From a virus (Duplodnaviria > Caudoviricetes): a stretch of 24,594 bases of DNA. Where the stretch lies: the IMG/VR virus record IMGVR_UViG_3300020045_010569, positions 1-24,594 of that record; one strand, written 5' to 3'. Shown here in pieces: positions 9,549 through 16,700 of the stretch. Position 1 is the stretch's first letter. Each line of letters begins with the position of its first letter. Below the pieces are notes generated by a model. That model was not told where the DNA came from, did not search any database, and worked only from the letters and a program-made list of their open reading frames with translations. The position numbers and the translations under genes are program-made.

Positions 9549-10100
9549 ATGAATACTAAATTCTTAAAAAAAATATCTGAACTAAAAAAAGAAACAGGAA
9601 AAATGTCTAAGGACTCAACAAATCCTTTCTTTAAATCTAAATACTTCGATGTTAATCAGCTATTGGAACACTTAGAACCAATTGCAGAAGCTAAAGGTTT
9701 ATTGATTTTACAGCCTATTGTTAATGGTGAGGTGTATTCTCAAATAATTGATATTGAATCAGGCGATAAAATCGAAAGTTCTATTGCGTTGACACAATTT
9801 AATGACCCGCAAAAAACAGGCTCTGCAATCACTTATTATAGACGTTATTCTTTGCAATCTCTATTAAGTTTACAAGCTGAAGATGATGATGCAAATAAAG
9901 CAAGTGGAAACGTTGAAAATAAACCTAAAGAAAACAAATCAAACGGTTTGCCGTGGATGAATGAAAACGACGCTAATTGGAAGGTTTTAGAAGGTGTTGT
10001 TAAATCTGGTCAAGTTCCTACAATGGCACAAATCAGAAAGAAATACAATGTAAGCAAGGCTACGGAAGAAAAATTGAAATCAACATTTAATATTTCGTAA
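9549..10100 (+). CDS. ERF-family single-strand annealing protein
   Basis: KDSTNPFFKSKY and DPQKTGSAITYYRRYSL...EDDDAN signature. Confidence 0.92.
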   Translation: MNTKFLKKISELKKETGKMSKDSTNPFFKSKYFDVNQLLEHLEPIAEAKGLLILQPIVNGEVYSQIIDIESGDKIESSIALTQFNDPQKTGSAITYYRRYSLQSLLSLQAEDDDANKASGNVENKPKENKSNGLPWMNENDANWKVLEGVVKSGQVPTMAQIRKKYNVSKATEEKLKSTFNIS

Positions 10101-12400: not shown

Positions 12401-12505
12401 TGTTAAGATTGTGAGTCCTACTAAAGCGATCTGATTAACGAAAATATTTTAAAAAATCATCTAATGATTTCGGAGTAGGACCCGAATGACTTAGATGATT
12501 TTTTT
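12401..12505 (+). ncRNA. Structured leader RNA: two hairpins with complementary 8-nt loops; hairpin 2 is terminator-like
   Basis: Loop GTCCTACT (12415-22) is the reverse complement of loop AGTAGGAC (12474-81); 14-bp perfect stem 12451-64/12491-504 ending in a T-run. Confidence 0.7.
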
Positions 12506-12528: not shown

Positions 12529-13068
12529 ATGGATTTTTTAGAAAAGGATTTGGAACAAATCATCTACGAAGCAACAGACGAACAAGTTTTTGATCAACTT
12601 TATTTAAAAGGTAAAAGATTTAGACAATTAAGAATTGGAAATTATGGAATATCTGATTTAATTTTTGTTAGAAAGGAATATAAGAACAATATTGATTATC
12701 AAAACTACACTTATAAAATAGAAGAATGTGGCATTGTTATAACAATATGTGAATTAAAAAAAGATAAAATAGGTATTTCAGCATTTTTACAGGCTATAAA
12801 TTACGCAAAAGGCGTGAAAGAATATTTAGAAAAAAGAGAGTTTTATAATTTTAACATTGAAATTCTATTATGTGGCAGGAGTATTGACTCAAGTGGCGGT
12901 TTTATATATTTAACTGACTTATTTAATCAATATGAAAACTACATGGATAATGAAAATGATTTTTCAAGATCAATAAAATGTATCGATTTTTATACTTATT
13001 CTTATGGTTTTGACGGGATAAAGTTTAAAAAAGAAGATAATTATACATTAGTAAATAATGGTTTTTAA
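12529..13068 (+). CDS. PD-(D/E)xK nuclease, NucS/EndoMS C-terminal-like
   Basis: LEKDLE, RQ, SDLI, ELKK and QAINY motifs in the canonical order. Confidence 0.7.
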   Translation: MDFLEKDLEQIIYEATDEQVFDQLYLKGKRFRQLRIGNYGISDLIFVRKEYKNNIDYQNYTYKIEECGIVITICELKKDKIGISAFLQAINYAKGVKEYLEKREFYNFNIEILLCGRSIDSSGGFIYLTDLFNQYENYMDNENDFSRSIKCIDFYTYSYGFDGIKFKKEDNYTLVNNGF

Positions 13069-13070
13069 TT

Positions 13071-13850
13071 ATGAATTATATAGAGCAAATTAACGGTTTC
13101 TGGAATAAGTCTGAAGATTCAGATTTAACGGGATTAGATATTGCGGTTTATATGTCATTATTAAAATACTGCAACAGATTGAATTGGTTAAATCCTTTTG
13201 TATGCCATTGGGATATTGTTTGTCAGACTTCTAAAGTGTCTAAAAATGCTTATTATAAATCAATTGAGAGACTTACTGAATTTGGATTTATAAATTCTGA
13301 AAAAGGAGTTAAAAACACCAACCAAAAACCTAAAATTTTTATTCTTGAATTAAAGAATAATGAAGGAACAATAAGGGAACAAAAAGGGAACAACGAAGGA
13401 ACAGAAGAGGAACAGAAAGGGAATATATATAAACATTTAAACAATAAACAAATAAACAATATACTTTCTTTCTTTGATAAATTACCTGAAGAAGAAATTG
13501 ATATTTACATTTCGAATCTTAAAATAATTGACACTGACAAAATAGACTTTGAAAAATTAAAAGACTTTATAAATAAAAAAACGGGAAGGGATTTTAAATT
13601 AGTAAATAAGCAAGTTAAAGGAAAATATTTAGCCAGATTAAAAGATGGTTATACTAAACAGGATATTTTAGATGCTGTTTCAAATGCTGTTAAAAACGAT
13701 TATCATAAAGAAACTGAATTTAAATATTTGACTTTAGAATTTTTTTCACGTGCTGATACTTTAGATAAGTATTCAAACACTAAAAAAGACACCTCAGAAC
13801 CTAAACCACAAAAAACAGAAGTAACCTATTCTGGTCCATTTCACAACTAA
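13071..13850 (+). CDS. Phage replication initiator (N-terminal wHTH, C-terminal Phg_2220_C-like domain)
   Basis: MNYIEQINGFW...AVYMSLL wHTH start; FINKKTGRDFK...ARLKDGYT...KYLTLEFFSR...LDKY; internal iterons; precedes the helicase. Confidence 0.85.
   Translation: MNYIEQINGFWNKSEDSDLTGLDIAVYMSLLKYCNRLNWLNPFVCHWDIVCQTSKVSKNAYYKSIERLTEFGFINSEKGVKNTNQKPKIFILELKNNEGTIREQKGNNEGTEEEQKGNIYKHLNNKQINNILSFFDKLPEEEIDIYISNLKIIDTDKIDFEKLKDFINKKTGRDFKLVNKQVKGKYLARLKDGYTKQDILDAVSNAVKNDYHKETEFKYLTLEFFSRADTLDKYSNTKKDTSEPKPQKTEVTYSGPFHN
13360..13460 (+). repeat. Putative replication origin: six 11-bp iterons (NNNNNGGAACA) plus AT-rich TAAACA repeats
   Basis: ATGAAGGAACA ATAAGGGAACA AAAAGGGAACA ACGAAGGAACA GAAGAGGAACA GAAAGGGAATA (13360-13425), then four TAAACA repeats. 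Confidence 0.78.
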
Positions 13851-13860
13851 AAACTAAAAC

Positions 13861-14934
13861 ATGGGATTTTACGATATACAATCTTATCAAAAGAAAATGC
13901 GTGTTCTCAGAGAGAATGGCGAGATTATACCCATTAAGTTTGGTTTTGAAAGTTGGAATCAATATGATAAAGAACGTTTAATAATGGGTAGTAGAAAAGC
14001 CACTGTACTAATCGGAGGAGAACCAAATCACGGCAAGTCAGCGTTTGCCAATGAGTTAGTAATGCAGTTGATAGAATTACACAGTTTTAAGGTGGCTATA
14101 TTTACAACAGAATCGGGAGAAGTAGAAAAAGTGTTTAGTAATTTTTGTGGCCTATACCAAGGAAAGCCCTATTCAAAGATTCGGCCAGATGGAAAAGTAA
14201 ACAATTACGCTATGACTGATGATGAATGTACGGAGGCTGAATATTTTTTATTGGATAAGCTTTATGTTTTCAAACAAGATCGGAAAGACACTAAATATCA
14301 AACTTTAGATAATATCTACAAAAAGGTGGCCGAGGCCGAAAATTTATACAATGTTAAATTTGACTGTTTGGTGATAGATCCTGTTTATGACGTAGACGAT
14401 TTTGAACCAAAGGCCAATGAAGTATTAAGAGTCTTAAATAGGTTTAATTTAGAGGCTGAAGAAAACAACCGTTTTGATATTATGGTTAACCACGTAGCAG
14501 ACACCCATAAAAGCTACGATATGAAAACTGGAAAGCGTAGAAAAACAGTTGCATTAGCCGATGAATTTTACGGAGGTAAGAACAATAACAGAAAGGCCAT
14601 GTTACAATTATTAGTTAGTAGGCCAGAGCCGTGTGATGGTGAAGGAGACCAACCCGTAGTATTAGAAAACCAAACTAATATACACGTTTTGAAAGTTAAA
14701 CCTGAAGGAGTGGCCAAATGGGGTGTATATCCAATTTATTATGATTGGCGAAGAAGAAGATATTACGAAACTTTTGATGGTGAAGATGGATACTCAATAT
14801 CAAAGTACTCAAATAACACTAAATTTAGCGACAAACACCCCACAAAAAGCATCGATGTTTATAAAGTGGTAGTTACACCCCAAGAAGCCTTTGAAATGCC
14901 TAAAAATGATGATGAATTTGATTTTCCGTTTTAA
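13861..14934 (+). CDS. DnaB-like (SF4) replicative helicase
   Basis: Walker A GEPNHGKS, FTTESG, Walker B LVIDP, VNH, LKVK; follows the initiator. Confidence 0.85.
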   Translation: MGFYDIQSYQKKMRVLRENGEIIPIKFGFESWNQYDKERLIMGSRKATVLIGGEPNHGKSAFANELVMQLIELHSFKVAIFTTESGEVEKVFSNFCGLYQGKPYSKIRPDGKVNNYAMTDDECTEAEYFLLDKLYVFKQDRKDTKYQTLDNIYKKVAEAENLYNVKFDCLVIDPVYDVDDFEPKANEVLRVLNRFNLEAEENNRFDIMVNHVADTHKSYDMKTGKRRKTVALADEFYGGKNNNRKAMLQLLVSRPEPCDGEGDQPVVLENQTNIHVLKVKPEGVAKWGVYPIYYDWRRRRYYETFDGEDGYSISKYSNNTKFSDKHPTKSIDVYKVVVTPQEAFEMPKNDDEFDFPF

Positions 14935-14943
14935 AATAAAAAT

Positions 14944-15354
14944 ATGAGCAATTTAGATAAAAATTTTAAACTTTGGCGTGATAGATACGATGACAGAATT
15001 TACACGTTAGACGATAAAGAAAACGAGCAAATAATAAAAAACAGATGTGATTATATTTTTGCTAAGATTGAAATACTTTTAGGCCAGACAGATAAAAAAG
15101 TTGTTGAAAAGGCCATTAAAAATTTAGTTCCTGAAAGTATAGAATATTGCGAGGCTTATCATAAGGCTACTGAAGAAAATAAAAAAAAGGAATTTTACAA
15201 AGATTTAAAAAAAGCTTCACATTATGCAACGGCCATACGTTCTACCATTTCAGATATATTTGAATTGAAAAATAGAAGGACGTTAGAAATATTTCAACTA
15301 AGAGCCGAAAACTCAAAATTAAGAATAGAATTAAATAACTTAAAAAATAAATAA
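14944..15354 (+). CDS. Hypothetical protein with C-terminal coiled coil
   Basis: ORF track. Confidence 0.8.
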   Translation: MSNLDKNFKLWRDRYDDRIYTLDDKENEQIIKNRCDYIFAKIEILLGQTDKKVVEKAIKNLVPESIEYCEAYHKATEENKKKEFYKDLKKASHYATAIRSTISDIFELKNRRTLEIFQLRAENSKLRIELNNLKNK

Positions 15355-15356
15355 TT

Positions 15357-15698
15357 ATGGATTTAGAAGGTAGAAAAAGTAACATTTACTTTGATAAAAC
15401 AGGAAAACAAATATTACCAGGTGATTTATTGAAAATCTTTCATTTCAGAACAAAAGGCAAAATTTATTATATGTATCATGTAGCCGTTATAGAAGATACA
15501 AATGATTTTCCAGTAATGGCGGCTAAGTGCTATTCAAGCGATAAACCACACTATAGATTTTATGTTTTATGTGATAATGAACAGAGAATTTATAAAAGAG
15601 CTCAAATAGTAAGTGAATTTGATTATTTAACAAAACGAATAAAAATTAAACCAATAATTCAGGAAACGTTATCCAAAACAAAAAATACTAACAATTAA
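15357..15698 (+). CDS. Hypothetical protein (YopX-like DKTGKQILPGDLL segment)
   Basis: ORF track. Confidence 0.75.
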   Translation: MDLEGRKSNIYFDKTGKQILPGDLLKIFHFRTKGKIYYMYHVAVIEDTNDFPVMAAKCYSSDKPHYRFYVLCDNEQRIYKRAQIVSEFDYLTKRIKIKPIIQETLSKTKNTNN

Positions 15699-15707
15699 AA
15701 AATTGAA

Positions 15708-16700
15708 ATGAAACATAAATTTAATTACGATTGGACATTAAAAGATGCAATATTTACTAAAGATAAAGGCAAAGTATTTTCATGCTTTGCTTGTGGTGGC
15801 GGTTCAACAATGGGATATAAATTAGCAGGATTTGATGTTATAGGATTTAATGAGATAGATCCTAAAATGGCAGAATGCTACATTGAGAATCACAAACCTA
15901 AACACACATACATAGAAGATATTAGAATATTTAAAGAACATGATGATTTACCACAAGAACTTTATAATTTGGATATTTTAGATGGGTCACCGCCTTGTAG
16001 TAGCTTTTCAATGGCTGGTAATCGTGAAAAAGATTGGGGGAAAGAAAAAGTTTTTAGAGAAGGTCAATCTGAACAAGTTTTAGACACTTTATTTTTTGAT
16101 TTTATTGATTTAGCCGAAAAACTACAACCCAAAATAGTAATTGCTGAAAACGTAGAAGGTATTATTTTAGGAGCCGCAAAAGAATATGTCCACAAGATAT
16201 TCAATCACTTTGAAAAAATAAACTATACAGTTAAATGCTTTTTACTTAACTCAAAAAAAATGGGAGTTCCTCAAAAAAGAAAAAGAGTATTTTTTATTGC
16301 GGTTCGTAACGATTTAATTAATCAATTACCTGTTAATGATTTAATAATGTTTGATGAATTTCCTTTATTAAATTTAGAATTTAATGAGCCGGTCATTTCA
16401 ATACGAAATTTTGTAGAGTTTGAAGAAAAAAAAGAAACTCAAAATTATAGTGAAAAAAGATTTGGTGACGTATTATTAAATTTAGATGATGCCGCAAATA
16501 CAATTACTTCAGGTGTTAGATTTTGGCTAAACGAAAAGTATATTTTAAAAAGAGAATGTTATAATTTAATCGGATCCTATCCTGGTGATTATAATTTCAA
16601 AGGTCAAGATAATATTTATTTAATTGGAATGAGCGTACCTCCAATAATGACAGCTCAAATAGCATCAAGAATTTACGAACAATGGAAAACAATATTTTAA
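15708..16700 (+). CDS. Orphan DNA (cytosine-5)-methyltransferase
   Basis: Motifs I FACGGG, IV GSPPCSSFS, VI ENV, VIII QKRKRVF, X IGMSVPP. Confidence 0.93.
   Translation: MKHKFNYDWTLKDAIFTKDKGKVFSCFACGGGSTMGYKLAGFDVIGFNEIDPKMAECYIENHKPKHTYIEDIRIFKEHDDLPQELYNLDILDGSPPCSSFSMAGNREKDWGKEKVFREGQSEQVLDTLFFDFIDLAEKLQPKIVIAENVEGIILGAAKEYVHKIFNHFEKINYTVKCFLLNSKKMGVPQKRKRVFFIAVRNDLINQLPVNDLIMFDEFPLLNLEFNEPVISIRNFVEFEEKKETQNYSEKRFGDVLLNLDDAANTITSGVRFWLNEKYILKRECYNLIGSYPGDYNFKGQDNIYLIGMSVPPIMTAQIASRIYEQWKTIF

Follow-up and report, generated by a model that had tools for sequence, protein, structure and literature searches.

The window, a 24,594-nt fragment (24.6 kb, a partial record) of a small tailed phage, carries all of its GGCC words in a single island of 11 palindromic sites without strand (14149..15234), eight in a replicative helicase gene and three in the next gene. 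We regard such restriction-word islands as a real, selected and recurrent feature. It is apparently undescribed: we found no account of such islands in the full-text literature, a body of text with most subscription papers outside its coverage. Our best explanation, to which we give a probability of roughly 35%, is that the island is a set of selected restriction-modification target words in the helicase module, which the phage would use as a programmed break zone cut by a host Type II enzyme.

The window encodes terminases, NinG, ERF, an initiator, a DnaB-like helicase, two methylases, a lysin and tail genes; no integrase was recognized in these 24.6 kb of the partial record. The DnaB/SF4-like helicase (13861..14934, + strand, 357 aa) matches PHROG 239 (E = 1e-22), PHROG 19 (E = 7e-8) and, weakly, DnaB_C, and lacks a primase domain. 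The 136-aa gene that follows (14944..15354, + strand) has no assigned function, and neither a family search nor a relative search gave a real relative or family. Upstream of the helicase lies a lambda O-like replication initiator gene (13071..13850, + strand; PHROG 428, 18020 and 270) that is free of GGCC and contains an array of 11-bp direct repeats (13344..13420, + strand). The preliminary description had placed the island about 0.7 kb after an iteron origin. The array is there and ends 729 bp before the first GGCC site; from lambdoid and SPP1 layouts (PMC6316719) we infer that its repeats are iterons and mark the replication origin. GC skew tracked gene direction and did not locate an origin. 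The ERF single-strand annealing recombinase (9549..10100, + strand; PF04404, E = 6e-22) is the predicted partner for repairing or using a break, and the terminase genes lie ∼ 11 kb from the island on the opposite strand. Downstream, an exchangeable slot holds an orphan C5 cytosine methyltransferase gene (15708..16700, + strand), an earlier call borne out by PF00145 (E = 3e-47). The possible PD-(D/E)XK nuclease encoded before the initiator (12529..13068, + strand), an accessory gene product, had been called NucS-like. This can be kept as a lead only: its product has no Pfam or PHROG match, and NucS_C occurs in 10–70% of the members of its Atlas neighbours. An intergenic inverted repeat (12451–12504; 23-nt arms, 83% complementary) lies upstream of the nuclease-like gene, and pieces related to it occur among the short contigs of runs X1 and X3. 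A flavobacterium is the probable host, since the nearest named relatives of the helicase (61–69%) come from Riemerella phages and from genomes of Chryseobacterium and Cruoricaptor. Genome searches gave no close prophage, the best matches being 61–72% identical.

A full scan of the window placed GGCC at 14149, 14183, 14328, 14334, 14412, 14595, 14621, 14712, 15082, 15111 and 15231, in exact agreement with the preliminary description. Outside 14001–15400 none was observed against 17.5 expected under a Markov model (P of zero = 2.5e-8), so the avoidance is stronger than the ∼ 10 expected sites of the first estimate implied. The probability that all 11 sites fall within 1,083 bp by chance is ∼ 3e-13. 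Every site lies inside a reading frame, and the codon contexts listed earlier (GTG GCC, GAG GCC and others) are as given. The local enrichment also holds: codon usage of the other genes predicts 0.74 GGCC in the two genes rather than 11. Synonymous GGCC opportunities are filled at 8/17 in the helicase gene and 3/7 in the 136-aa gene (11/24 together), and at 0/176 in 21 other window genes. The codon-shuffled null that had been proposed, applied within the two genes, gave a mean of 3.9 GGCC and reached 11 in 1 of 20,000 shuffles. Half-sites are at background once GGCC is masked, and this restriction of the enrichment to whole palindromes is expected of a two-fold symmetric reader. The sites show no regular spacing and share no longer consensus, their flanks varying with the codons. 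Without the sites the GC3 of the two genes is ordinary (0.28 and 0.19), and CCGG, CTAG, CGCG, GGNCC, CCNGG, GCNGC and GCGC are all absent from the helicase module. An origin of the sites as a by-product of a GC-rich gene does not apply to the window. Other Type II palindromes are scarce outside the island as well (CTAG, 6 vs 42.5 expected; CCGG, 3 vs 16 expected). Of the module's 13 unfilled opportunities, nine differ from GGCC by a single step, as GGCT or AGCC (14094, 14235, 14454, 15153, 15165, 13998, 14556, 14886 and 15303), and are possibly decayed sites.

A 38,295-nt contig in run X2 matches window positions 13801–15350 at 94%. Between 14140 and 14730 there are 41 differences, and all 38 listed ones are at third codon positions. 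Silent G/C positions are unchanged in X2 at 10/10 places inside six GGCC sites vs 24/45 outside (Fisher p = 0.0045), a test confined to the six sites in the fully listed zone, with 14712 and the three sites of the 136-aa gene left out. This comparison shows the silent GGCC positions of the module to be under selection. The site at 14149 appears unchanged in X2, and a C at 14457 turns the one-off GAG GCT of the window (14454..14457) into an extra GGCC. The helicase gene itself is under strong purifying selection, and many of the GGCC sites need A-to-G or A-to-C changes relative to relatives. By its alignment in one block with the helicase in X2, the 136-aa gene travels with the helicase. The surroundings do not: X2 has other sequence in place of the nuclease-like gene, which is absent at the matching place, the initiator stretch, a 113-aa gene and the C5 methylase. 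The methylase slot is skipped in the X1 and X3 contigs and in X2 holds a gene that begins like an N4/N6 methylase (nine codons only).

Around the gene, all 32 relatives of the window helicase have three or fewer GGCC, and in the 26 whose flanks are long enough no island of any of 16 motifs is present. Within the stretches compared, none of 80 terminase-selected loci has a GGCC island comparable to that of the window. A two-site DNA pattern scan of viral contigs gave six matches, all unrelated GC-rich sequences. One 88%-identical relative on a short contig (L022:193-2020) has seven CCGG and no GGCC in 2.1 kb, and is possibly a CCGG form in this helicase family.

The cultivated Flavobacterium phage tooticki6-1 carries a CCGG island in a different gene, a TOPRIM-fused primase-helicase that was not retrieved with the window helicase as query. 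Fourteen of its 15 CCGG lie in the stretch that starts at the initiator's end and takes in the primase-helicase gene, where 13/28 opportunities are filled vs 2/270 in 19 other genes; its terminase, capsid and tape-measure genes have no island. We examined the best 80 of 230 viral primase-helicase relatives, 77 of which have at least 2.5 kb of flank. Only three of 32 palindromes are enriched in the primase-helicase gene at p < 1e-4, namely CCGG (15 loci), GGCC (5) and GGNCC (5). Among these best 80 of 230 relatives, 19/77 loci have an island (three of them with identical proteins) and 58/77 have none. Sites per locus are mostly bimodal, at 0–2 or 9–17 with a few at 3–5. In a quick tree of 59 of the 80 proteins, from which near-duplicates and some fragments had been dropped, islands fall in six places, most with island-less sisters (e.g. 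L225, L230, L151 and L164). On the evidence of these loci and of the window, the island pattern has arisen in two different helicase families. Site positions turn over among the CCGG-island genes, which fill 40–57% of their opportunities. In eight of these genes sites are better conserved than background in 28/28 pairs, 22 of them at p < 0.05, the pairs being non-independent. The loss alleles are mostly CTGG/CCAG (14/26); codon position constrains them, so they do not indicate the methylated base. Selection also appears to reach the protein sequence, because Gly-Pro pairs, which force GGNCC, occur in 4/5 GGNCC-island proteins vs 1/54 others.

Several observations stand beside this pattern. Pro-Gly and Gly-Pro are nearly absent from these 600-aa primase-helicases (L148–L270), apparently a protein-level avoidance of CCNGG and GGNCC. 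The primase-helicase is present in 2/401 Flavobacteriales genomes, neither with an island. A small C5-methylase-like gene of the Muminvirus group (PHROG 757; L146:3332-3988, L166:3163-3819, L193:1649-2305) holds a second CCGG cluster of six sites (6/19 opportunities), the only CCGG cluster seen in phages without the primase-helicase; its phi19:1 homologue has 2/16 opportunities filled. Phages mumin9-1 and snusmum6-1 grow on the same two hosts as island phages and have an alternative replication module without a CCGG island. All five of their CCWGG lie in or just after this alternative helicase-VirE module (L193:13255-17863, L146:15238-19200). Two further readings were rejected. An effect at the RNA level is not indicated by folding (z = -0.71) or by promoter-like sites (29 vs 28.7 in shuffles). 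Recognition by a primase does not fit, given that half-sites are not enriched, that island and non-island proteins differ at no telling residue, and that the window helicase lacks a primase domain.

Across these loci the island goes with the origin-linked helicase gene beside the initiator, beginning where the initiator ends or shortly beyond and extending across the helicase gene. It is independent of the terminase, of the initiator family and of any one phage methylase, as the following distributions show. Island phages have terminases 22–100% identical to that of tooticki, and L151, with a large terminase 92% identical to tooticki's, has only two sites. Judged by N-terminal sequences, at least four kinds of initiator accompany islands and two of these also occur without them. 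In L151, L152 and L154–L165 unrelated-looking initiator kinds are freely swapped before one conserved primase-helicase. Island genomes carry three different C5 families or, as in the complete genomes G412, G413 and G414, only N4/N6 enzymes. The N4/N6 family of G412 and G413 is also found in the island-less L165 and G001, and phi19:1 lacks an island although it has the small C5 gene. Some methylase is present in each complete island genome examined; the complete island-less genomes G407 and G408 gave no match to 14 methylase queries. The idea that every island phage has a C5 methylase is overturned by G412–G414, in which none is detectable. All 34 Muminviruses have a C5-type enzyme (PMC7077304, Table S13); it belongs to one of three families, found in 28, 4 and 2 genomes, whose complementary distribution makes them look interchangeable. 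The link drawn earlier between the island and the neighbouring C5 methylase and NucS-like genes is not needed, since the island persists in X2 where other sequence has taken the place of both, and a C5 methylase is undetectable in three complete island phages. As far as comparative genomics can tell, the neighbouring C5 methylase is not required for the island.

The closest solved relative of the window C5 enzyme is CmoX (PDB 8YF3, E = 7e-44). Like CmoX of Synechococcus phage S-B43 it has the SPPC motif, whereas R350, which binds carboxy-SAM in CmoX (PMC12783734), is replaced by methionine. The arginine that defines CmoX is thus missing from the product of 15708–16700, and neither CmoA nor CmoY was recognized in the window. 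The methionine is a property of the window methylase family and also corresponds to N304 of HhaI. Similarity to M.HaeIII is confined to the catalytic part (residues 24–209), and the variable region is ∼ 25 residues shorter than in five relatives.

GGCC is the target of HaeIII and GGNCC that of Sau96I. CCGG is the target of HpaII, and an HpaII-like system is among the two most prevalent in F. psychrophilum (PMC11837570). In the family of Chryseobacterium sp. Leaf180, HaeIII-like nucleases were found in 4/201 genomes and HpaII-like nucleases in 12/201. The Muminviruses show host-dependent plating typical of restriction-modification (PMC7077304). GATC, CGCG, CCNGG and GCSGC, which are also targets in F. 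psychrophilum (PMC11837570), never form islands. In five hosts that have HaeIII- or HpaII-like nucleases, the dnaA and dnaB regions contain no island. One host genome (G205; L196 and L197) has CCGG at ∼ 5–6 times the base-composition expectation (25 in 4,961 and 43 in 7,962 bases), and GGCC, GATC and CTAG are low in it.

The preliminary description had left a choice between a neutral import and a functional cluster, and the data favour function: sites are conserved above the synonymous background, are gained and lost singly, and the pattern occurs in two helicase families. A selected build-up combined with a purge, recurrent and in interchangeable words, argues that some enzyme reading a restriction target must benefit the phage at this place. 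Whole palindromes, three Type II targets, the purge and a benefit that seems to rise with site number all point to a restriction-modification enzyme acting at one place. We suggest that DNA from the last host would arrive methylated and safe. Rapid re-initiation would then produce origin-proximal daughter arms with an unmethylated site, replication outrunning methylation, and the host Type II enzyme would cut or nick the island while forks are still moving. The cut may change replication from theta to rolling circle, or it may feed a recombination-dependent mode mediated by ERF; either way the outcome would be the concatemers needed for packaging. This scheme uses a predicted origin position and a predicted fork direction. 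Each additional site near the origin would make a cut in time more probable, whereas sites elsewhere would only destroy finished genomes, a benefit and a cost that together predict a single island and a purge of the rest. Which word is used would depend on the common Type II target that is fixed in the host population. More broadly, and tentatively, lytic flavobacterial phages may have repeatedly domesticated host Type II enzymes as a replication timer, by purging the word and keeping 10–20 copies in the helicase gene.

A break zone is favoured by the HaeIII- and HpaII-like nucleases of the likely host group and by the plating behaviour of the Muminviruses. It also fits the theta-to-sigma switch of SPP1, for which a double-strand break plus an annealing recombinase has been proposed (PMC6316719), the window having ERF. 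Several points weigh against it. A phage that enters a new restricting host unmethylated should be killed by its island, copies of the helicase gene would be lost to cuts, and the methylase present in every complete island genome examined could block cutting. Most primase-helicase loci, 58 of the 77, have no island, and mumin9-1 and snusmum6-1 grow without one on the hosts of island phages. A break zone also gives no explanation of why GATC, CGCG, CCNGG and GCSGC are never used, and the island-less G407 and G408, with no methylase match, fit better with a mark that is read.

Such a mark is the main rival, doubtful in our judgement yet a serious contender. Methylated or hemimethylated palindromes would not be cut. 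They would license, time or shield initiation, in the manner of the GATC clusters of E. coli oriC, or would identify the phage DNA as 'self' to a defence that checks DNA under replication. The same positional and selection data serve this reading, and so do the four orphan methylases known to have motif clusters at origins (PMC4752239) and the complementary C5 families of the 34 Muminviruses (PMC7077304). However, no phage methylase family tracks the island: G412–G414 do without C5 enzymes, the N4/N6 family of G412 and G413 recurs in the island-less L165 and G001, and the small C5 gene of phi19:1 comes without an island. The five nuclease-bearing hosts have no island at dnaA or dnaB. With three words in use, a dedicated reader would need to change specificity, and marking alone does not explain the purge elsewhere.

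The remaining explanations are less probable. Protection of the most conserved gene by modified sites, whether from CRISPR interference or from the homing endonucleases that co-infecting phages bring, is unlikely. HNH- or GIY-YIG-like genes do stand beside helicase genes in several relatives (phi19:1 by annotation; L023, L159 and L163 from ORF starts), and a benefit that rises with site number fits; but one site per 100–150 bp covers a minority of target sites, and the terminase, capsid and tape-measure genes of tooticki carry no island. Quite unlikely, too, is that a MutH- or Vsr-like nickase of host methyl-directed repair reads the sites as strand signals, with local antimutator cover or a strand-displacement nick as the result. 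The strong purifying selection on the gene would suit it, whereas such second-order selection is not expected to fill 40–57% of opportunities or to add Gly-Pro pairs. We consider a methylation-gated packaging site of the P1 type very unlikely. In P1, pac lies within a coding region and consists of seven clustered hexamers that contain GATC (PMC10028697), but the window terminase genes are remote and on the other strand, islands occur with distant terminases, the large terminase of L151, 92% identical to tooticki's, accompanies only two sites, and island sites share no longer consensus. A fuse or switch operated by the adjacent C5 methylase and NucS-like gene, as first proposed, is highly unlikely. 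The module does lie between these two genes, and C5 genes are found close to the islands of G406 and G411 as well, but X2 keeps its island with both replaced, the N4/N6-like start of its slot gene (nine codons) leaving room for a substitute of the same specificity. Import of the module from a GGCC-rich lineage with an incomplete purge is scarcely credible: the helicase and the 136-aa gene do form a mosaic block, but all other avoidances hold in it, its GC3 is ordinary without the sites, sites persist and are added in the face of AT-biased drift, an island combined with a purge is seen in complete genomes too, the 32 helicase relatives include no GGCC-rich donor, and the Vsr-type enrichment invoked earlier is unlikely because, on our reasoning, T:G repair would not make the many A-to-G or A-to-C changes.

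Restriction sites are usually treated as pure liabilities for lytic phages; here they are built up in one essential gene. The island bears on why phages carry orphan methylases and on how small phages switch to concatemer synthesis, and it is a pattern that whole-genome avoidance statistics hide. If the host enzymes do act as a replication timer, the island word (GGCC, CCGG or GGNCC) would reveal the host's resident restriction system from phage sequence alone. The question is directly testable, since the CCGG form is present in cultivated phages of the Muminvirus group whose environmental hosts are Flavobacterium sp. LMO6 and LMO9, and is missing from close relatives that grow on these hosts.

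Origin clusters are described for orphan methylases with GATC in Gammaproteobacteria, TTAA in Arthrobacter, CTCGAG in Nocardia and CATG in haloarchaea (PMC4752239). The island resembles them as a dense methylatable palindrome at or beside a predicted origin, conserved between relatives. Unlike those clusters, which are non-coding and served by one enzyme (PMC4752239), it is in a phage, coding and written in codons, its word is purged elsewhere, three words are interchangeable and no single methylase is conserved. The pac site of P1 is 161 bp with a fixed hexamer in the terminase gene (PMC10028697, PMC12707154), whereas islands span 1.1–3 kb of the helicase region without a longer consensus or co-segregation with the terminase. 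The near-total purge is like the avoidance of orthodox Type II targets in non-temperate phages (PMC6286503). That survey is of whole-genome counts, and the words 'cluster', 'local' and 'overrepresent' are absent from its main text; here the purged word is in selected local excess, the reverse of what the survey describes. The island departs in a defining property from origin clusters, P1 pac and avoidance surveys alike. SPP1 has its origin inside the initiator gene, as predicted for the window, and the two share a DnaB-type helicase downstream, an annealing recombinase and a proposed break from which concatemer synthesis would start (PMC6316719, PMC3485210). The break for the theta-to-sigma switch of SPP1 is proposed to arise through its own proteins at a stalled fork (PMC6316719, PMC3485210), whereas in the phages described here the breaker would be a restriction enzyme of the host.
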